DNA from: Candidatus Hadarchaeota archaeon
GTDB lineage: Archaea > Hadarchaeota > Hadarchaeia > Hadarchaeales > Hadarchaeaceae
Direction of reading: 5' to 3'
Assembly (NCBI GenBank): GCA_964514945.1
Contig: CAZESD010000003.1
Coordinates: 1-51,329 of the forward strand
DNA length: 51,329 bases
Notes under the pieces: generated by a model
What the model saw: the letters and a program-made list of their open reading frames with translations, nothing else
Database searches by the model: none
What the model was told of the DNA's origin: nothing
Position numbers and translations under genes: made by a program
Shown: positions 20,856 through 29,564 of the stretch, one piece after another
Numbering within the stretch: the first letter of the stretch is position 1
How the letters are laid out: each line of letters starts with the position of its first letter

Positions 20856-21029
20856 GATTTTCAATCTCACCTATTTGTTCTGACAAATTCACGATGTTCG
20901 TGCATAAGAAATAGCTTACGTCGAGCAATCTGTTTAAGGTAATGGTTGGTCTCGATATTGGGATACTTACCGACCTCTGGAACTTGAAGGGAATACCTCC
21001 AAAAAAGTTGCGCAAGCTAAGGCCGGCTT

Positions 21030-21050
21030 AAAAAAAGAAAAAGGAAGGGC
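21030..21050 (-). terminator. Oligo-T tract, probable archaeal terminator
   Basis: CCCTTCCTTTTTCTTTTTTTT on minus strand just after the stop of the 21056 gene. Confidence 0.5.
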
Positions 21051-21055
21051 AGAGT

Positions 21056-21436
21056 TTACCTGCCCTTCGCAGCTTCGTAGATTGCCCTCAGTGCAATGAT
21101 CAGCGCAGCCGCGCCTACAAGCGTCGTTATGTTTGCTGCTAGCTGAGTGAGCTCTGTCGGTATGCTGACTCCAGTTAATGGTATCATCGTCTGCATGCCT
21201 AGAACGGTAACGACGAAAGCAATAGTGGCCAGCAGGAAGGGGCTACTCTCGCGGACCGTTATGTTGAGGAGTCCGACGACCACTCCCAAAACCGCAAGCA
21301 CTACAAAAAGCCAATCCGACGGCGTCATGAACGCTGCAACTAAAGCTATTATTAATCCTATATAGAATGCTGCTGGACCGATTAGGGCAATTCTTTTAAC
21401 AGCCTTTTCCCTTGCCAGGTTCAACCCTCCATGCAA
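21056..21436 (-). CDS. Small 4-TM membrane protein
   Basis: Hydrophobic helices, GLLNIT..ESSPFLLA; true start may be TTG/CTG a few codons downstream, after GGAGGG. Confidence 0.8.
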   Translation of the reverse strand: MHGGLNLAREKAVKRIALIGPAAFYIGLIIALVAAFMTPSDWLFVVLAVLGVVVGLLNITVRESSPFLLATIAFVVTVLGMQTMIPLTGVSIPTELTQLAANITTLVGAAALIIALRAIYEAAKGR

Positions 21437-21454
21437 ATGTGATTTGTCCCTCTT

Positions 21455-21667
21455 TTAAAGTATATGGTAGTGCTTTTTTGGAAGTAGAGCCAATTTTGCA
21501 TCAACATAATGAAGTGCAACGTAAAATGCCGCAGTAACCATCCAGTCTGAAAAAATCGGACTACTCGATAACCATTTTTTTATCAATCGCAAGAACTTTT
21601 TGTGCAGAAATTGAACTGGCAAGGCCTCGCTAATAGTAAACTTTATATTCCGAAACTTTTTCTGCAA
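21455..21667 (-). pseudogene. Truncated HEPN-domain gene remnant
   Basis: DWMVTAAFYVALHYVDAKLA resembles the HEPN N-terminal helix motif; stop occurs before any R-x4-6-H motif. Confidence 0.5.
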
Positions 21668-21755
21668 AATTTATATCAGTCTCAATTTATCGGAATGAAT
21701 AAAGAATAAAGTTAAAGTTTTTAGTCTCTACAATACCAGAGCAAGTCGGTGGATC

Positions 21756-21863
21756 ATGGGGAAGCGACCTCGAAAGTGGAAGAAGAAGGGCCACATGCGC
21801 TGGAAGTGGGTACGGAAGCGCATGCGGCGGAAGCTCCGCAGGATCAAGCAGAGGAAAGCTTAA
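21756..21863 (+). CDS. rpl41e: Ribosomal protein eL41 (eS32), Thermococcales-type; not in ORF track
   Basis: [35 protein letters not shown], matching the [14 protein letters not shown] signature; GGTGGA RBS. Confidence 0.9.
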
Positions 21864-21970
21864 TCGATTTCCCATTTTGAGATATCTAGAGGCCAATATC
21901 TTAGCATCGCTTTGTAACACGCTAAACAGCTCTCCTTGCCCCCGCTCCACGATGCGATAACTTGCGTCAT
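21860..21970 (-). pseudogene. Truncated DUF71/COG2102 (Dph6-like) PP-loop ATPase
   Basis: ATG 12 nt after the rSAM stop: MTQVIASWSGGKESCLACYKAML, then unrelated sequence and stop at codon 37. Confidence 0.8.
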
Positions 21971-21982
21971 AGCAATACATGC

Positions 21983-22690
21983 TTAGATTACATTAAAAAC
22001 TTCGTACTTCAATTTCTCGTTGCCGCACAAATATGTCACATTCTTCAAGTGTTTTCTTGCTTCTCTTACAGCATTTTTGATTTCTTGGGAGGTTGGTGCT
22101 CGCCATAAATCGTTGACTGGAATGTAAGCATCGATATGGTACGATATCTCTGAATCAATTGATGAGATAAATTGCGCGATTTTCTTGATTTCTTCTAGTT
22201 CAATTAAACCAGGGATGTAAATACTCTCGGAGGACAAAGGAACGCCGGAATTATGGATTTTCCTAAAATTCTTTAATGCGTTTTTATTAGATTTTTCAGT
22301 GAATTTTTTGTGTAGTTCATCAGAATACGCTTTTATGCTTACGCAGATATCATTCACATTTTCTAGCAACTTTTCGTTTAGCTCATGACCATTTGTTAGT
22401 AGAATACTGTAGATACCGGAATCGTGCAATTTTTTGGTTAATATTGGTAGTTCTGGGTCAACGGTTGGTTCTCCACCCATTAGGGTTACTTTCTTGGCGC
22501 CGAGGCCATCCAAAATTCTCAAAATCTCGGCCAATCTCAGGTAACGAATTTCACTTTTGGGTTCAGTTTTTACATGGACATCATATAAGGTCTTTTTTCT
22601 AATGCAACCCAAGCAACTGAAATTGCAGCCATAGAAGTGGAGGTTTGCAGTTTTTGTTTTTGGAGCGTATGTTATGTGATACACGTTCAT
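21983..22690 (-). CDS. Radical SAM protein (PflA/activating-enzyme-like, short)
   Basis: FYGCNFSCLGC, MGGEP, LTNG, ISIKA, YIPG. Confidence 0.9.
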   Translation of the reverse strand: MNVYHITYAPKTKTANLHFYGCNFSCLGCIRKKTLYDVHVKTEPKSEIRYLRLAEILRILDGLGAKKVTLMGGEPTVDPELPILTKKLHDSGIYSILLTNGHELNEKLLENVNDICVSIKAYSDELHKKFTEKSNKNALKNFRKIHNSGVPLSSESIYIPGLIELEEIKKIAQFISSIDSEISYHIDAYIPVNDLWRAPTSQEIKNAVREARKHLKNVTYLCGNEKLKYEVFNVI

Positions 22691-22699
22691 TTTACCACT

Positions 22700-23689
22700 C
22701 TAAACTGGACAAGCCCCGCATTTTCGACAGTACGTGGATGTGTGGGGCACGTTTGAATTACACCTAGGGCAAATTTTGCCGTTTGGGTCAGTCGGGTGGG
22801 GCACCCCTACCGCCGACCTGTAAATTTCGTAGTAAAAAAGCTGCTCCTTATCTCTGATGGTCACTTTATCTTCATCGAGGTACTTGCTTTTTTTCTCGTC
22901 AAACCCAATGTCAGGGATAATTAAATTAAAAAAGCTCGGCAGCGTGGCGGTCCCCGAACCAAACTCTATGGGCGTTTTGGTCCTCCATACTATTTCTTTG
23001 GGCAACATATTCTCGAAGGCTTTGCGTAAGATCCACTTGCCCCATGTTTGTCCACTTTCGCTTCGAACTTTTAACGATGGGCCCAACTCCATAGCAAATT
23101 TTTTAAACTTAGGGTCAAGGTATGGAAGCTTGACCTCCATCCCTAGAACTTTAGCAAGCTCTGTTGATGAAAAATGCATGATGCTCCACAATTTTTGGAG
23201 CTCTAAATTTAGCTGCTTCTTTTCCAATCCGTGGAGAAAGCTGTATCCTGCGAAGAGCTCGTCACACCCATCGCCAGTTATAACCGTATTTGCACAGTTT
23301 TCCTTCGCATACTTTAGACCAATATAAATCGTTGCGCTGTTGCGGATTTCCATGGGGTCGAAAGAGTCCAAGGCCTTGACAACAACTCGAATTGCATCGT
23401 ACAACTCTTCCTCGTTGAAGCGGTGAACAAAATGTTTTAAGCCAAAACGGTTTGCTACCAAAGCCGCGTAGGAGATATCTGGCGCGGGAGCGTTCTGTAG
23501 AGCAACCGTAAATGCCGTTAGTCCTACTCGCTTGGATGCCAAGTAGGCAAGAATCGATGTGTCAAGGCCCCCAGAAAGCAGAATCCCCTCCGCCAGATTT
23601 CTTTCGACGCTTTCATCCAGCGCTTTCATAAGTCTGTTGCATAGGGCAACAAGATCTTCTGCATCCGATTGTTTTTGGGGATTTATCAT
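22700..23689 (-). CDS. Stand-alone asparagine-synthetase C-terminal (synthetase) domain with Zn ribbon
   Basis: LLSGGLDTS PP-loop, TGDGCDELFAGY, LPYLD, KWILRKAF, RTKTPIEFGSG, C-terminal CPRC...CRKC; no glutaminase domain. Confidence 0.88.
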   Translation of the reverse strand: MINPQKQSDAEDLVALCNRLMKALDESVERNLAEGILLSGGLDTSILAYLASKRVGLTAFTVALQNAPAPDISYAALVANRFGLKHFVHRFNEEELYDAIRVVVKALDSFDPMEIRNSATIYIGLKYAKENCANTVITGDGCDELFAGYSFLHGLEKKQLNLELQKLWSIMHFSSTELAKVLGMEVKLPYLDPKFKKFAMELGPSLKVRSESGQTWGKWILRKAFENMLPKEIVWRTKTPIEFGSGTATLPSFFNLIIPDIGFDEKKSKYLDEDKVTIRDKEQLFYYEIYRSAVGVPHPTDPNGKICPRCNSNVPHTSTYCRKCGACPV

Positions 23690-23726
23690 CTCTATCCATT
23701 AATAATTAACACGTAAAGGTTTTATA

Positions 23727-24431
23727 TTGGATATACCATCCAACATGGGGGGAAGCTTGAGGATAACCGGAGTAAGAAGAAAAATTGCAGAGAAAATATG
23801 GGGCGGTAGAACCCCTGATGAAGTTTTGTCTAAACGGTACAAGATATTCGTTTTCCTAGGAATTTTTTTAATAGGCATGTTTGCGGTGTACCGTTATTTC
23901 ATTGGGATAACTTTTCTTCCGAATTTCGAATGGATAATCCCTATTCTTGTCGTCACTGGCTCCTTCTCGCTTTACTGCGGCCCGTCCAAATTTTGGCGAA
24001 TAGTTACCCGGTATTTTGGAGTCTTGGCGGTAATCAGCGCGTTTATTGTATGGTTTATCATGTTTGGGATTCTACCTATCCACGCTTTCGTATGGTCAGG
24101 TTTCATCTTTGCTTGGTTGCTTGCTATGAGAAACAAGCTCTCGATGTTCGACAAATTCAAGAAACTGCTATGGCGCACGACACTCACGGCCGCTATTGCT
24201 ATCATCGTGTTTGACATCTATACCGGGGTCTTTGGCTGGTCGCTCGTTCATGGCGCGGGGCTGGCAGCAGCATTTCTTGCCCAGATACCATTCACATTGT
24301 ATCATCTTTGTTCTTTGATATTCATCCCACCATTAGTAGGGTTAGGCAAGCTACTGGTGAAGGTCAAGGTTCCCGTCCCGGTGGCAATTGCAGCAGAGAG
24401 GCAGGTCAGGGTTCAGGAGCGTATCAGGTGA
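23727..24431 (+). CDS. Probable ECF-transporter S component (cobalamin-type, DUF6580-like)
   Basis: About six TM helices, LPNFE motif, AQIPFTLYH motif; followed by DUF4430 gene; start uncertain. Confidence 0.65.
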   Translation: MDIPSNMGGSLRITGVRRKIAEKIWGGRTPDEVLSKRYKIFVFLGIFLIGMFAVYRYFIGITFLPNFEWIIPILVVTGSFSLYCGPSKFWRIVTRYFGVLAVISAFIVWFIMFGILPIHAFVWSGFIFAWLLAMRNKLSMFDKFKKLLWRTTLTAAIAIIVFDIYTGVFGWSLVHGAGLAAAFLAQIPFTLYHLCSLIFIPPLVGLGKLLVKVKVPVPVAIAAERQVRVQERIR

Positions 24432-24445
24432 TAGGAGGTGATCGA

Positions 24446-24844
24446 TTGAAAAAAAAGCCAACAATGCAGATCCTAGCACTCGTAGTTATAGTCGGATTTC
24501 TTTGCTTTGCTAGCGGGTACTATGTGAGCGGCACCCTCCCATTCGCAACGACTAAGGAAATATCGGTAAAGGTAAAAGTAGTAACGAAAGAAAGTGGCAC
24601 CATTCAAAAAACGGTAACCATTAGAGACGGCATGACGCCTTTTGACGCATTGCTGAAAGTGACCGATATGCAGACCACGTATTGGGAAAGCTATGGAACT
24701 TCGACCATGCGTTCAGTGGCATGGGATAATTTAGGTTCAAACGAAGGTTATACGTACACGGTGAACGGTGAAATGCCAGGTGCTATGAGTGATTGTCAGT
24801 TACACGATGGCGACAACCTCGTAATTTCGTACACCACGTGGTGA
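24446..24844 (+). CDS. Membrane-anchored DUF4430 (transcobalamin C-terminal-like) protein
   Basis: TTG start after GGAGGTGA; N-terminal TM; TPFDALL...YTVNGEMP...LHDGDNLVISY. Confidence 0.75.
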   Translation: MKKKPTMQILALVVIVGFLCFASGYYVSGTLPFATTKEISVKVKVVTKESGTIQKTVTIRDGMTPFDALLKVTDMQTTYWESYGTSTMRSVAWDNLGSNEGYTYTVNGEMPGAMSDCQLHDGDNLVISYTTW

Positions 24845-25408
24845 TCACAAAAGTGTCCTAGCAGCTGCTTTCGCGCCTTCTTCGGCTTTCACGATATCTC
24901 GAGCACTCCCGATTATTATCACATCTTCTTCGCGAGGTTTGAAAATCTTCGTAAGCGTATCGCTCAGCTCCTTCCCGATCTTCAGAAAACCATCCGGGAA
25001 TTGAAATTTCCCCCCCCTGAAAATTAACACTGTAGCACCCGTAGCCCCGGCCTTTATCGCCTCATCCCTTTGCTCGATACCCCGTTTGACTTTCTTCACC
25101 GCGCCGCGAACGATCACCGCGACATCAACTTTGCCGACCGTAAGGTTCCCAGCATCGATTTGCGCGAATTCAAGAGGTTTTCCGAGTGAACGTTTGCCTT
25201 TGGCCGTGAGCGCATGCCCACCACGCGATGAGGTGATTAATCCCTGCTTCTTCAGTTGGTTAAGAATCGTGCGCATGCTGCCTTCACCCACCCCGATCTC
25301 TCCGGCAAGCTGTTTACGACCAGTCCTTTTGTGCTTCGCTATGAGTTCAAGCGCTCTGCGAACGTGAACCTCGGCAAAGCGCGGCAGGGGCCCGATGGCG
25401 CGCGGCAT
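24845..25408 (-). CDS. HTH + DUF4443/DUF2111-like protein
   Basis: GPLPRF, GRKQLAGEIGVGEGSMRTIL, GIEQRDEAIKAGATGAT; start ATG 25408 or GTG 25417. Confidence 0.8.
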   Translation of the reverse strand: MPRAIGPLPRFAEVHVRRALELIAKHKRTGRKQLAGEIGVGEGSMRTILNQLKKQGLITSSRGGHALTAKGKRSLGKPLEFAQIDAGNLTVGKVDVAVIVRGAVKKVKRGIEQRDEAIKAGATGATVLIFRGGKFQFPDGFLKIGKELSDTLTKIFKPREEDVIIIGSARDIVKAEEGAKAAARTLL

Positions 25409-25445
25409 AGACAGCACTTATCCCTTCACAATTTTCGTGCCAGTT

Positions 25446-25644
25446 TTATCCTTGCTGCAGCATAAGGTTTCTGGTTTGAAGTACGTTGCCGTGGGTTATC
25501 ACGAGCCCAATCCTGTTTTGCCTACTTTACCAGTTGCGCGAGAAGTCGGGTGGTTTTCTTGCGGTTCAGAAATTGCTTCGCGATGGTTCCACTTTCATGG
25601 TCCTGCTTAATCGCGTTCCCACCTAAGGTGACCAATAACTTCAT
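25446..25644 (-). pseudogene. arcC: Carbamate kinase gene remnant (N-terminal about 65 codons)
   Basis: GGTGA RBS + ATG: MKLLVTLGGNAIKQDHESGTIAKQFLN...LVK*(TAG 25522-24); shifted frame gives LVITHGNVLQTRNLMLQQG*. Confidence 0.85.
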
Positions 25645-25736
25645 CTAATCACCGGGTTTCCAATATTTGAGGAAAGGATTAATATTTCCATGTGTTCGTT
25701 ATTTTTTACACAGTATATGTCAGGATCGGGGATGAC

Positions 25737-26513
25737 GTGATACGCGCAGTCACCTTGGATGTGTGGGGCACCCTGCTTGGTTATACGTCCGAGCTGAGCG
25801 AGTACTGGCGAGAGGCTAGAAAAAGGGGTATGTTCAAAGTACTGAGAATACTTGGATATAACTACAACATGAGCGAGATTAGCAAAGCCTACGATATGTT
25901 GGAGCGAAAAATTAGAGGGGAGGAGGTCCTCTTGCCAATTAGCTGCACGAGTTCTTCGAGGCAGCGCTTTGAATCGATGAGTGAGATAACAGTCACAGAT
26001 CAAGTGGGGCTCTTCCTGAGACTCCTTAACGTCAAAGTTCAGGGTCCTTGGTTTAAGGAACTTGTGAAACTCTATGCCGAGGCCTCGCTTGAGAAGTTGC
26101 CCACCTGTGCGAAAAATGCGCGCGAATGTCTCAGCCAATTGAAGGATGATGGCATAAAATTGGGGATAATATCCAACGTTGCCAGGACGCCAGGCAGAGT
26201 CCTCAGGATCGCTTTGGCTAGGCATGGGATACTAGAATATTTTGACGCCACGATTTTCTCCGACGAGGTTGATGTGAAAAAACCCCATCCAAAGATATTC
26301 CTACACGCCCTTTCTCAGCTAGGGGTTAAGGCCAGCGATGCTGTTCACGTGGGGGATCGCTTGCGTGAAGATGTCTACGGAGCCAAAAGGGTCGGCATGC
26401 GCGCGGTTCTTTGCCGATCCATCGCTCCTTCCCTCCCAGACGAGGAAATACTCAAACCTGACGTTTCGATTGATGAATTGACACAACTTCCAGCCGTGCT
26501 GAGGTTCATCTAA
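25737..26513 (+). CDS. HAD-superfamily hydrolase
   Basis: Start revised to GTG 25737; LDVWGTL, IISN, KKPHPKIF, HVGDRLREDVYGA. Confidence 0.9.
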   Translation: MIRAVTLDVWGTLLGYTSELSEYWREARKRGMFKVLRILGYNYNMSEISKAYDMLERKIRGEEVLLPISCTSSSRQRFESMSEITVTDQVGLFLRLLNVKVQGPWFKELVKLYAEASLEKLPTCAKNARECLSQLKDDGIKLGIISNVARTPGRVLRIALARHGILEYFDATIFSDEVDVKKPHPKIFLHALSQLGVKASDAVHVGDRLREDVYGAKRVGMRAVLCRSIAPSLPDEEILKPDVSIDELTQLPAVLRFI

Positions 26514-26550
26514 GCTCTGATCCTTTCGAACTTGGTCATTTTGATTCTCC

Positions 26551-27483
26551 TTACTTTTCCTTCTTTTTAAGTAAGGAAACGAGTAGGGCTTTTTGCGCAT
26601 GCATTCGATTTTCGGCTTGGTCCCAGACAACCGAGCGCGGCCCATCGATGACATCGTCCGTGATTTCTTGTCCTCGGCGAGCTGGCAGGCAGTGCATGAC
26701 GATGGAGTCTGGCTTTGCCCCCTTTAACAGCTGGGCATTGACTTGGTAATCCTTGAACGCCTTCATTCGTTCTCGGGCCTCTTTTTCCTGCCCCATCGAG
26801 ACCCACACGTCTGTATAAATGACGTCTGCTCCACCAACGGCTTGTTTTGGGTCGGTCGTGAACTCAACCTTTGCGCCGCTTTTCTTCGCGTTGGCTCGTG
26901 TCTGCTTTACGATATCAGCGGGCGGCTCATAGCCACGCGGACAGGCAACTGAGATGTTCGTGCCGACCAGCGTGCATCCCAGCAATAAAGAGTTGCAAAC
27001 GTTGTTTCCATCGCCAATCCACGCTATTTTAAGCCCATTGAGTTTGCCTTTGTGCTCGCGAATTGTGAGCAGGTCACTTAACGTTTGACACGGGTGGTGC
27101 AAGTTGGTCAGCCCGTTAATCACAGGTACGCTTGAGTAACGCGCGAGTTCGACAATGATATCGTGTTTAAATAGTCTTGCCATCACCACGTCAACCCAGC
27201 GTGAAAGGTTGCGGGCCACATCAGGAACGGATTCCCTCTCCCCCAGCTGGATATCAGCGGGCGCTAGGTAGATCGCGTGTCCACCAAGTTGAGTCATCCC
27301 GGTTTCGAAGGTCACCCGTGTGCGCAGTGATGGTTTCTCGAATATCATACCAAGCGTTTTACCTTTGAGCAGTTCGTGCGGTTTCCCTTTTTGAAGCTTT
27401 TCTTTGAGCTCCGCAGCTTCATCCAAAATTGCGTTGATTTCACTCGAGCTCAGGTCCTGCATAGATAACAAGTGTTTTACCAT
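26551..27483 (-). CDS. argF: Ornithine carbamoyltransferase
   Basis: PSLRTR, HPCQ, GDGNNV, DVWVSMG, HCLP, QAENR. Confidence 0.97.
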   Translation of the reverse strand: MVKHLLSMQDLSSSEINAILDEAAELKEKLQKGKPHELLKGKTLGMIFEKPSLRTRVTFETGMTQLGGHAIYLAPADIQLGERESVPDVARNLSRWVDVVMARLFKHDIIVELARYSSVPVINGLTNLHHPCQTLSDLLTIREHKGKLNGLKIAWIGDGNNVCNSLLLGCTLVGTNISVACPRGYEPPADIVKQTRANAKKSGAKVEFTTDPKQAVGGADVIYTDVWVSMGQEKEARERMKAFKDYQVNAQLLKGAKPDSIVMHCLPARRGQEITDDVIDGPRSVVWDQAENRMHAQKALLVSLLKKKEK

Positions 27484-28670
27484 TACCTTTCAGCCTCACT
27501 TAATATTCCATCCAGAGCTTCTATCAAGCGATCGATATGTTTTCGCTCGACTATCAGTGGTGGAACGAACCTCAAAACTTTATCGGCGGTGCAGTTTATC
27601 AGGAAACCTCGCTTCCTAGCTTTGACTACCGCAGCATCGGCAATTTGTTTGGTAGAGAGTTCCATCGCAAGCATTAGCCCGAGTCCTCGCACCTCTCGCA
27701 CGCACCCGTGTTTGTCTGCGAGTTCATTCAAGCGCTTTTTGAAGTACTCGCCAATTTTCGCGGCTCGTTGAGGTAGCTTCAGCTTTTGCATCGTTTTTAT
27801 CGCAGCTTTTGCAGCCACACAAGCCAAGGGATTGCCGCCGAAGGTCGAGGCGTGATTGCCTGGCGAGAACGATCCCATCACCTCAGCTCTAGCGCCAAAG
27901 CAACCGATCGGAAAACCTCCGCCGAGCGCCTTCGCCATGGTGAGTTCGTCAGGCTCCACATTCCAGTGCTCGCACGCGAACCATTTGCCCGTGCGCCCCA
28001 TCCCAGTTTGGACCTCATCGGAGATCAAGAGCGCTCCATGCTCATCGCATAGCTTTCGTAGTCCGGGCAGGTAATCGTTGGATGGTACGTTTATGCCGCT
28101 CTCGCCCTGAATCGCCTCTACGATTACAGCAGCCGTTTGCTCGCCAATCGCTCGCTCGACGGCAGCAAGGTCGTTGAAGGGCACGAAATCGAAGATTTTT
28201 GGGATGAGGGCTCCAAATGGCTCACGATAACTGGATTTCCAAGTCGCGCCAACGCTAGCTGCCGTCCTGCCGTGAAAGGAGCCCTGCATAGCGATGATAC
28301 GCTGACGCTTGGTGTGTTTGACCGCGAGCTTGAATGCACCCTCGATAGCTTCTGCACCAGAGTTGCAGAAGAAGAACTTGTTGATACTCTTTGGGACGAC
28401 GCGTGCGAGCAATGCCGCTAGCTCCGCTTGTTGTTGGATGTAATAAAGATTTGAGGTGTGCATTAACTTCTTCGCCTGAGCGGAGATCGCCTTGACAAGC
28501 GCTGGGTGGCAGTGTCCTAAAGAACAGACCGCGATCCCCCCTACGAAATCTAGATAACGCTTTCCTTGGATGTCCTCGACGAACATTCCTCGCCCCTTTA
28601 CAAGCGCCAAAGGCTGGCGTCGGTAGGTACTCGCAACGTAGCGCCCATCGAGTTCTTGGATGCGCTGCAT
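27483..28670 (-). CDS. argD: Acetylornithine aminotransferase
   Basis: NSGAEA, FHGRT, DEVQTG, MAKALGGG, TFGGNP. Confidence 0.95.
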   Translation of the reverse strand: MQRIQELDGRYVASTYRRQPLALVKGRGMFVEDIQGKRYLDFVGGIAVCSLGHCHPALVKAISAQAKKLMHTSNLYYIQQQAELAALLARVVPKSINKFFFCNSGAEAIEGAFKLAVKHTKRQRIIAMQGSFHGRTAASVGATWKSSYREPFGALIPKIFDFVPFNDLAAVERAIGEQTAAVIVEAIQGESGINVPSNDYLPGLRKLCDEHGALLISDEVQTGMGRTGKWFACEHWNVEPDELTMAKALGGGFPIGCFGARAEVMGSFSPGNHASTFGGNPLACVAAKAAIKTMQKLKLPQRAAKIGEYFKKRLNELADKHGCVREVRGLGLMLAMELSTKQIADAAVVKARKRGFLINCTADKVLRFVPPLIVERKHIDRLIEALDGILSEAER

Positions 28671-29564
28671 TTATTTGCCCCGTTCGATCATCGTGCCTAT
28701 ACCGCGCTCGGTCAAAATTTCAAGCAAAAGCACATGGGGCGCGGTGCCGCTGATGATGTGGGCGCGCTCGACGCCCCCCTGCACGGTCCTCAGGCAGGCC
28801 TCAATCTTTGGGATCATGCCTTTTTTTATGATCCCTTCTTGAATGAGCTTCTGTGCTTCCTCGACAGTCAGCTGTGAGATGAGTGATTTTTCATCCTTCG
28901 GGTCGCGCATTACACCTATAACATCAGTAAGCAGGATGAGTTTTTTCGCGCGCATAGCGGCTGCGAGTTCGGCAGCCACGACGTCGGCATTGATGTTCAG
29001 GCTGCGTCCTTCTGTATCTATGCCTATCGGAGCGATTACAGGGATGTAGCCTGTGCCCACGAGGTAGTTTATGACGGTTGGGTTTATCTGCTCGACTTCA
29101 CCGACCAACCCAAGATCTACTTCGACCTCGCGCCCCTTGCTCGTCGTGGTCTTATAGAGAAGTTTGTGAGCGCGGATGAGATTTCCATCCATGCCTGAGA
29201 TACCCACTGCGCGCCCCCCATGCTTGCTTATCCCCAGCACGATCTCCTTGTTGATTTTTCCAACGAGCTGCTCATGCAGGATCTCCATCGTCTCTTCGTC
29301 GGTCACGCGGAGCCCTTCGACGAATTTCGGCTTCTTCCCCAGTTTGCGCATCTCCTCACTTACCTCGGGCCCGCCGCCGTGCACGATCACGATCTTCATG
29401 CCGACGTAGCTTAGGAGGACGATGTCGCGGAGCATGGCATCGAGCAACTTCTTTTTCTCCATCACGCTTCCGCCGAGCTTGATAACTATCGTCTTGCCGT
29501 GAAATTGCTGGATGTAGGGCAGGGCCTCGAGCAATATCGTGGCGCGGTCTTGCATTTTCACCAC
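28671..29564 (-). CDS. argB: Acetylglutamate kinase
   Basis: EALPYIQQF, IKLGG, VHGGGP, GLRVTD, NINAD, GMIPK. Confidence 0.97.
   Translation of the reverse strand: MVKMQDRATILLEALPYIQQFHGKTIVIKLGGSVMEKKKLLDAMLRDIVLLSYVGMKIVIVHGGGPEVSEEMRKLGKKPKFVEGLRVTDEETMEILHEQLVGKINKEIVLGISKHGGRAVGISGMDGNLIRAHKLLYKTTTSKGREVEVDLGLVGEVEQINPTVINYLVGTGYIPVIAPIGIDTEGRSLNINADVVAAELAAAMRAKKLILLTDVIGVMRDPKDEKSLISQLTVEEAQKLIQEGIIKKGMIPKIEACLRTVQGGVERAHIISGTAPHVLLLEILTERGIGTMIERGK

Follow-up and report, generated by a model that had tools for sequence, protein, structure and literature searches.

Most microbes that need vitamin B12 cannot make it, and salvage of the cofactor shapes microbial communities. The known map of salvage comprises uptake, remodeling by CbiZ or CbiR, and assembly of the nucleotide loop, and we know of no description of B12 repair. 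Here, we analyzed a locus in a 51,329-nucleotide stretch of DNA from a Candidatus Hadarchaeota archaeon (assembly GCA_964514945.1, contig CAZESD010000003.1; the whole stretch is hereafter the window), which lies on contig C3 of a 1.07 Mb metagenome-assembled genome (MAG) that is 75% complete. The locus combines a putative corrinoid importer and its candidate regulator with a divergent operon for an AsnB-like ligase, a radical S-adenosylmethionine (SAM) enzyme, and the scar of a deleted DUF71-B12 gene.

The closest described systems cover parts of this gene set. The DUF71-B12 subgroup was predicted in 2012, along with its clustering near btu and cbiB genes (de Crecy-Lagard et al., Biol Direct 7:32, PMC3541065), and its signature is a His that replaces the Glu of Dph6 in an ENGE[FY]H-type motif (PMC3541065). 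AsnB-DUF71 fusions were treated in the same paper solely as an ammonia source for Dph6 (PMC3541065), and a constant AsnB-like partner is not part of that description. Among importers, the energy-coupling factor (ECF) transporter ECF-CbrT is encoded in the nrdJ-cbrS-cbrT-pduO cluster of Lactobacillus delbrueckii (PMC5997447), and the DUF4430 gene of the present locus corresponds to its cbrS-type neighbor. The locus shares with ECF-CbrT, the solitary S-component-like BtuM, and BtuCDF the logic by which an auxotroph without synthesis genes is supplied with B12 through a capture protein paired with a small membrane protein. Literature searches of limited scope brought up, for DUF71-B12, only the 2012 paper and one review, with no later characterization, and no relevant publication for the AsnB-like partner, the radical SAM enzyme within btu operons, DUF4443 and DUF6580, or a B12 operator or regulator of archaea. 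A preliminary description of this DNA had claimed that no characterized system has this gene set; the DUF71-B12 prediction and the likeness of DUF4430 to cbrS narrow that claim to the other parts, on which we found nothing published.

The best explanation as a whole, to which we give a probability of about 70%, is that the locus is a streamlined genome's unit for corrinoid capture and import, joined by an accessory corrinoid-processing operon, in an organism that neither builds nor rebuilds the cofactor. The locus is a variant of cobamide salvage with several uncharacterized parts, in which the operator, the importer pair, and the regulator form the core system, and the AsnB-like/radical SAM/DUF71-B12 operon is accessory. 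Its features, called from a listing of open reading frames (ORFs) and from Pfam and NCBIfam profile scans of the window, are as follows:

21860–21970, minus strand: in-frame deletion scar of a DUF71-B12 gene (COG2102 PP-loop ATPase), a 36-codon mini-ORF that reads MTQVIASWSGGKESCLACYKAM, then LR, then 12 residues
21983–22690, minus strand: small single-cluster radical SAM enzyme, 235 amino acids (PF04055, E = 2e-22, 80.6 bits)
22700–23689, minus strand: glutaminase-less AsnB-like PP-loop ligase with a C-terminal Zn ribbon, 329 amino acids (PF00733, E = 1e-43, 150.8 bits)
23690–23756, no strand: divergent promoter region, as judged from its sequence, with a single shared AT-rich TATA-like element, TTTTATAT, at 23720–23727
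23727–23743, no strand: candidate operator, the inverted repeat TTGGAT-ATACC-ATCCAA, recognized by conservation and placement
23757–24431, plus strand: polytopic membrane protein, DUF6580-like, a putative corrinoid permease (alternative starts at 23746 and 23727)
24464–24844, plus strand: N-terminally membrane-anchored DUF4430 protein, a putative corrinoid-capture protein (PF14478, E = 3.7e-4, sub-threshold; fold)
24845–25417, minus strand: DUF4443 winged-helix regulator, a candidate binder of the palindrome (PF14544, E = 8e-29, and PH0730-like_N)

The leftward operon consists of the AsnB-like ligase gene, the radical SAM gene, and the DUF71-B12 scar, and the rightward operon of the genes for the membrane protein and the DUF4430 protein. 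All genes of the preliminary description were borne out at or near their reported positions by the ORF listing and profile scans; the DUF4443 gene, convergent with the rightward operon, had been overlooked. Ratios of nonsynonymous to synonymous substitution (dN/dS) of 0.09–0.29 for all five intact genes indicate purifying selection.

Links of the locus to B12

Four independent lines (the genomic contexts of AsnB-like genes, the radical SAM family, cobalamin riboswitches, and the fold of the DUF4430 protein) strongly support that the locus is concerned with B12. The contexts of AsnB-like genes were surveyed at 80 loci, each from a different species and taken as the best of 530, with B12 genes sought within 10 kb or in the fetched flanks (loci of this survey and other fetched relatives carry L numbers below). 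B12 uptake or salvage genes were found near 35 of the 80, and among these 35 loci, DUF71-B12 was present in 23, nucleotide-loop genes in 22, transporters in 25, and the same radical SAM family in 10. The typical gene order was BtuF-(radical SAM)-BtuC-BtuD-(DUF4443)-AsnB-like-(radical SAM)-DUF71-CobT-CobS-CobY, with CbiB and CobZ alongside (L043, L044, L063, L068, L069, L071, and L114), while on other metagenomic contigs the operons ran ECF-S-like/AsnB-like/DUF71-B12/CobT-like/CobS/CobY with a divergent PgpA-type CobZ. At three loci, CobY (NTP_transf_3), the AsnB-like ligase, and its Zn ribbon were fused in proteins of 526–587 amino acids (L064:9173-10936, L070:774-2357, and L075:6139-7719). 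Homologs of the AsnB-like, DUF71-B12, and radical SAM enzymes occur in salvage operons of Hadarchaeota, Bathyarchaeia, Nitrososphaeria, Asgard archaea, Dehalococcoidia, and others.

The radical SAM family leads to the same subject. Its homologs lie in the B12 operons L035, L037, L044, L069, L071, and L114, and between btuF and btuC (btuF-radical SAM-btuC-btuD) on contigs of Dehalococcoidia and Methanocellales that also carry cobA, cbiP, cobT, cobS, and cbiB. Cobalamin riboswitches precede some Dehalococcoidia operons of this kind, namely L035, which contains the radical SAM gene, and L098 and L073, which contain the AsnB-like gene. Enrichment near B12 genes, chosen beforehand as the observation on which the proposed B12 link would stand or fall, was clearly present, and together with the CobY fusions, the riboswitches, and the DUF4430 fold, it upholds that link. 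The BtuD-type ATPases of the btu operons that contain the radical SAM gene (L035:9836-11092 and L037:9733-11007) have an extra C-terminal domain of about 170 amino acids, Pfam MJ0874.

Probable substrate and proposed chemistry of the accessory operon

The genome around the locus narrows what its enzymes could act on. Hidden Markov models (HMMs) were derived from salvage genes at the fetched loci (for BtuF and BtuC, at L035 and L037), and a search of the MAG with them detected no CobS, CobT, CbiB, CobZ, BtuF, BtuC, CobA, CbiP, CbiM, or ECF-S, and the genome is without cobS, cobT, cobY, cbiB, and cbiZ. Pfam searches found CobS and CbiB in none of the 37 genomes of the family; within the same order, three larger genomes encode both, next to AsnB-like and DUF71-B12 genes. 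The MAG does contain four genes with a B12-binding domain. As no loop-assembly genes were found and B12-binding-domain genes are present, the organism is auxotrophic for cobamides and unable to rebuild their lower arm, and the locus is the only recognizable cobamide locus of its genome. B12-binding domains at C6:13906-14265, C49:3669-4007, and C62:2932-3279 are located in ORFs of about 470–480 amino acids, which, by size alone, may encode B12-dependent radical SAM enzymes and would then be consumers of the imported cofactor.

Since the AsnB-like and radical SAM genes are kept under purifying selection in a family without loop-assembly genes, their substrate is most simply the imported corrinoid, on which they most likely act directly. 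The presence of these enzymes without loop-assembly genes in the window's lineage turns their chemistry into a question that could be tested on a small set of commercial substrates.

Synthetase domains of the AsnB type, as known from AsnB, beta-lactam synthetase, and CarA, activate a carboxylate by adenylation for attack by a nitrogen nucleophile; where the glutaminase domain is missing, free ammonia or an amine would serve as this nucleophile. The ligase of the window belongs to the same synthetase-domain fold family as Escherichia coli AsnB (1ct9) and its glutaminase-less relatives beta-lactam synthetase and CarA (1jgt and 1q15), shares with them the SGGLDS PP-loop and the xGDGxDELFAGY motif, and presumably also has carboxylate adenylation followed by attack of a nitrogen nucleophile in common with them. 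Within its own family, the PP-loop SGGLDTS is invariant. It differs from AsnB in that it aligns only to positions 199–505 of the 554-position AsnB model, has no GATase Pfam match and is thus without the N-terminal glutaminase domain, bears an extra C-terminal Zn ribbon (CPxC...CRxCG), and scores far under the AsnB cut-off (173.6 bits versus 499 for NF006949, its best match, E = 6e-51; 140.9 versus 267 for TIGR01536). Its context is also cobamide salvage rather than the amino-acid or beta-lactam synthesis of AsnB, beta-lactam synthetase, and CarA. By analogy with these enzymes, the ligase would adenylate a free carboxylate on a corrin side chain at the expense of ATP and then amidate it, which would repair deamidated corrinoids. 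Re-amidation, put forward in the preliminary description, fits AsnB-type chemistry and is plausible and the most economical assignment; we advance it tentatively, as a possibility with the odds somewhat against it, and as an inference rather than a result.

The contexts of the AsnB-like family also suggest another role, in which the ligase would build the lower arm as an ATP-dependent aminopropanol(-phosphate)-cobyric acid ligase that aids or bypasses CbiB and feeds CobY, with no repair of side chains. The three independent fusions to CobY speak for this role, as does the frequent position of the AsnB-like gene, either with cbiB on one side and cobT/cobS on the other or right behind cobY. However, CbiB is encoded in the same operons (L043, L063, L069, L070, L071, L073, L075, and L090), which excludes the AsnB-like protein as a direct replacement of CbiB, and the family of the window keeps the AsnB-like gene under purifying selection without cobS, cobY, cobT, or cbiB. 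We therefore regard a lower-arm ligase as improbable here, and action on the imported corrinoid as the better account.

The third gene of the operon has been lost cleanly and in frame in this lineage. Its scar joins the first 22 residues of a DUF71-B12 gene to its final 13 residues and stop codon; in tblastn comparisons with the intact DUF71-B12 proteins of L038 and L023, residues 1–22 and 212–224 matched in one frame, and the scar was scored at E = 3e-10 by a DUF71-B12 HMM built here and at E = 0.01 by PF01902. It retains the N-terminal PP-loop of SGGKD/ES type, SWSGGKESCLACYKA, identical to that of the intact DUF71-B12 neighbors, while the region of the His motif is deleted and the window's copy is dead. 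The same scar is found in L034, an independent assembly with 97% identical enzymes, where scar and flanks are collinear at 93% DNA identity; the deletion is hence real and shared, and an assembly artifact is ruled out. Relatives L023/L025 and L038 have an intact DUF71-B12 gene after the radical SAM gene, and in L036/L045 the gene is absent from that place. The motif ExGE[YF]H was present in 21 of the 24 DUF71 ORFs adjoining AsnB-like genes, the other three being truncated or not scored, and the intact relatives with this motif sit among btu, cbiB, and cob genes; the deleted gene was thus a member of the described subgroup, which differs here in being reduced to a 36-codon scar. The other DUF71 gene of the genome, on contig C48, has EGGEYE, that is, the Dph6 motif. 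What had been noted as a DUF71 remnant is accordingly real and more exactly an in-frame deletion scar, and of the two carboxylate-amidating ATPases proposed for the locus, the genome retains one intact carboxylate-activating ATPase.

For DUF71-B12 and the AsnB-like protein together, the remodeling idea of 2012 would offer an alternative to CbiZ, by which the lower-ligand arm of unsuitable cobamides is removed or exchanged. An anti-correlation of DUF71-B12 and CbiZ in bacteria, together with the clustering with cbiB, favors it (PMC3541065). Yet CbiZ is present in 7 of the 20 genomes with AsnB-like and DUF71-B12 salvage operons, including three bacteria, which weakens a replacement of CbiZ by these proteins, and an apparent CbiZ-CobZ fusion occurs in the same cluster at several archaeal loci. 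In the family of the window, where cbiB and cobS are absent, the product cobyric acid would be unusable. PP-loop enzymes, moreover, form amides or activate carbonyls and do not hydrolyze amides. We hold this alternative to be quite improbable.

The radical SAM enzyme (cluster motif CNFSCLGC, of CxxxCxxC type) has in its family no invariant cysteines other than those of this motif, and none for an auxiliary cluster. It resembles PflA, MoaA, and QueE in its small core, its CxxxCxxC cluster, and a GGE motif, with 3c8f and 1tv7 as the nearest solved relatives. The likeness remains at the superfamily level; no partner glycyl-radical enzyme is encoded, and the family occurs inside btu operons. In an NCBIfam scan, all equivalog scores were far under their cut-offs (the best being 49 versus 250, 46 versus 284, and 32 versus 206 bits). 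The enzyme would catalyze a radical reaction of its own on the corrinoid that the ligase would modify.

The loss of DUF71-B12 could also mean that the left operon is a decaying relic, in which the AsnB-like and radical SAM genes no longer have a function and the importer unit alone is of use. In favor of this, L034 shares the DUF71-B12 deletion with the window, L036/L045 have no DUF71-B12 after the radical SAM gene, and most genomes of the genus do not have the operon. Both genes are nevertheless intact, with a dN/dS of 0.14–0.21 for the AsnB-like gene and 0.17–0.29 for the radical SAM gene; when the window's genome is compared with L034, which has the same deletion, the values are 0.16 and 0.29, respectively (small counts, 9–20 changes), and against more distant relatives 0.14–0.23. 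A relic thus seems to us a quite improbable account, and an operon that works as an accessory to the importer the preferred one. In 7 of the 37 family genomes, its own included, the accessory operon shares the promoter region. G+C content is 40%–45% across the AsnB-like gene, the radical SAM gene, and the promoter (positions 21000–24000 of the window) versus about 50% in the flanks. This lower G+C content fits an accessory operon gained or exchanged apart from the core importer unit.

The weakest account, a locus unrelated to B12 in which the AsnB-like enzyme is an asparagine synthetase that uses aspartate and ammonia, and DUF4443 is the regulator of the neighboring arginine operon, can draw on the best model match being AsnB and on DUF4443 directly following argF and amino-acid kinase genes in the window, L023, L034, and L036, but is very nearly dismissed by the score far below the AsnB cut-off, the B12 contexts, the DUF4443 genes inside btu operons without arg genes (L037, L043, and L044), and a palindrome that precedes B12 transport genes and not arg genes.

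Putative importer pair, candidate operator, and candidate regulator

The DUF4430 protein, which begins with the Met codon at 24464, was scored at 21.3 bits against a PF14478 gathering threshold of 23.8; PF14478 is carried by 27 of its 30 homologs. Its AlphaFold model (pLDDT 70.7) matched the beta domain of human transcobalamin (5no0) in foldseek with E = 2.8e-6, TMt 0.75, and a probability of 1.0, and the bacterial DUF4430 structure 3u7z with E = 2e-5 and a probability of 1.0. Homologs and fold thus agree with the membrane-anchored, transcobalamin-like DUF4430 protein first proposed. The fold of residues ~30–126 is shared with the beta domains of transcobalamin and intrinsic factor (5no0 and 2bb5) and with 3u7z at TMt 0.75–0.80; in contrast to transcobalamin and intrinsic factor, the protein is a single domain on a membrane anchor without an alpha domain, and its corrinoid binding is putative, as predicted from the model. 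Anchored in the membrane, it would capture corrinoids.

The membrane protein had been called ECF S-component-like, and this assignment was not supported. The protein of the window had no Pfam or NCBIfam match, and its family is narrow, with 17 representatives at 50% identity; 7 of 12 members matched DUF6580 (PF20221), the best at 3e-19. In hhalign comparisons with two S-component-like families that adjoin AsnB-like genes elsewhere, the probability was below 1%, and a PDB sequence search returned no relative. A foldseek search with its AlphaFold2 model (pLDDT 82.5) gave nothing significant, the best match being BioY (4dve) with TMt 0.48, probability 0.6, and E = 2, followed by another S component at about 0.46. 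EcfT (PF02361) was absent from its own genome and from most module-bearing genomes of the family, including ones 90%–95% complete. Profiles, PDB sequences, and the lack of EcfT therefore give no support for an ECF S component, and the fold search yielded no significant match. The membrane protein accordingly differs from S components, ECF-CbrT included, in having no detectable sequence relation to them and no EcfT to work with; BtuM was not among its fold matches, and, unlike in BtuCDF systems, no btuF or btuC homologs are found in the genome. Nonetheless, its gene (dN/dS 0.10) is always paired with DUF4430 and holds the position that btuFCD or ECF-S genes occupy in other loci, and from this pairing and positional equivalence we infer a role in transport. 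The DUF6580-like protein would carry corrinoids inward without an ECF module, which would make it, with DUF4430, a minimal candidate importer that does without BtuCD as well.

Between the two operons lies an inverted repeat that is conserved at the DNA level. In aligned divergent promoters of relatives whose synonymous sites are saturated, the block GTTGGAT-N5-ATCCAAC is invariant. In the window, it directly follows the TATA element TTTTATAT and overlaps the first codons assigned to the membrane-protein gene in the ORF listing, and a TTTATA element is located directly 5' of the palindrome at nearly all related sites. In rows of L038 that we translated by hand, the frame of the ORF listing closes (TGA) before the membrane-protein gene; as the 17-nucleotide block is invariant and the frame is closed in L038, the block is non-coding, and TTG 23727 is ruled out as the start codon. 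A start at TTG 23757 or ATG 23746 is more likely. The divergent AT-rich promoter previously placed at 23690–23726 is supported as a region, while positions 23727–23743, previously read as the start of the gene, are a non-coding palindrome; promoter function of 23690–23756 is predicted from the sequence.

TGGAT-N5-ATCCA has one site in the whole 1.07 Mb MAG, at 23727–23743, and 21 sites in 1.06 Mb of fetched loci versus about one expected. At about 30 loci in all, it stands immediately before the gene that opens an operon for cobamide uptake or salvage; in the fetched loci, this gene is btuF at seven, an ECF-S-like gene at six, a DUF6580-like gene at eight, and DUF71-btuF in L037. The palindrome follows a TATA box across Hadarchaeota, Bathyarchaeia, and other archaea (L030, L032, L037, L043, L044, L054, L060, L063, L068-L071, L105, L114, and L122-L141), and some of its sites are of a longer form, TGGATGGATAATCCATCCA.

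A DUF4443 gene, single-copy in the genome, accompanies the motif. Of 61 relatives, 48 have such a gene, for the most part together with a motif site that lies some 1.1–1.4 kb from it on the same contig, and all of the 20 fetched relatives that lack the AsnB-like operon have the motif, the membrane-protein gene, DUF4430, and a convergent DUF4443 gene. Elsewhere, DUF4443 is located inside btu or AsnB-like operons (L037, L043, L044, L026, L056, and L105), and it was found in 12/12 motif-bearing archaeal genomes and in 0/4 bacterial ones, which use riboswitches. Judging from position and co-occurrence, DUF4443 most likely binds the palindrome as a corrinoid-responsive repressor. Rightward transcription would then start from the TATA box directly before the palindrome and be repressed by DUF4443 in response to corrinoids, and the leftward accessory operon, with its ammonia-type AsnB-like ligase, its minimal radical SAM enzyme, and originally DUF71-B12, would be transcribed from the common promoter region. 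The window itself had no Rfam match to the cobalamin riboswitch (RF00174). Regulator and palindrome could be an archaeal counterpart of this bacterial riboswitch, with which the palindrome shares its position before the first gene of B12 uptake and salvage operons, including operons with the same radical SAM and AsnB-like families, and from which it differs as a DNA palindrome next to a TATA box with a candidate protein regulator. Directly next to the DUF4443 gene lies an arginine operon (argB, argD, and argF, with an extra amino-acid kinase gene in relatives), an arrangement seen in the window (24845–29564), L023, L034, and L036.

Counter-evidence and wider meaning

Several observations weigh against the proposed unit of corrinoid import with an accessory processing operon. 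Forty-five of the 80 AsnB-like loci had no B12 gene in the fetched flanks (of the 35 loci flanked by 5 kb or more on each side, 18 had none), and the AsnB-like family may not be monofunctional. Its CobY fusions fit nucleotide-loop assembly better than repair, and with DUF71-B12 gone, the left operon could be heading for loss. The membrane protein itself is without a Pfam match or a significant structural match, DUF4443 is a broad archaeal family that occurs in other contexts and here abuts the arg operon, and the MAG is 75% complete, so that the absences of genes rest mainly on its relatives.

To the known map of salvage, the window adds a minimal configuration that constrains the substrate, a clean in-frame loss of DUF71-B12, an importer pair without an ECF module, and an operator-regulator pair. 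Three conserved uncharacterized enzymes recur in salvage operons, which suggests that B12 recycling includes a chemical step not yet known, and the palindrome with its DUF4443 neighbor is a concrete candidate for the regulation of B12 uptake in archaea. The most far-reaching version, in which the AsnB-like ligase, DUF71-B12, and the radical SAM enzyme form a repair pathway for scavenged corrinoids and DUF4443 with the palindrome forms the first archaeal protein-based B12 switch, over an importer of DUF4430 and DUF6580 type without an ATP-binding cassette or ECF energizer, is doubtful when taken in full. If true, such a pathway would restore scavenged corrinoids with deamidated or otherwise altered side chains in long-lived anaerobic sediments.

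Two further groups of proteins were observed in the fetched salvage clusters. ORFs of about 380 amino acids gave matches to the PgpA-type CobZ seed as well as to Pfam CbiZ (L043:1531-2667, L070:6181-7341, L075:2706-3842, and L114:2860-4026), and judging from these matches, they look like CbiZ-CobZ fusions in archaeal salvage clusters. In Bathyarchaeia, a protein of 247 amino acids with a weak AIR-synthase-related N-domain recurs beside an ECF S component and cobS (L032:10233-10976, L070:10747-11541, and L105:4184-4957) and may be a further uncharacterized salvage enzyme.

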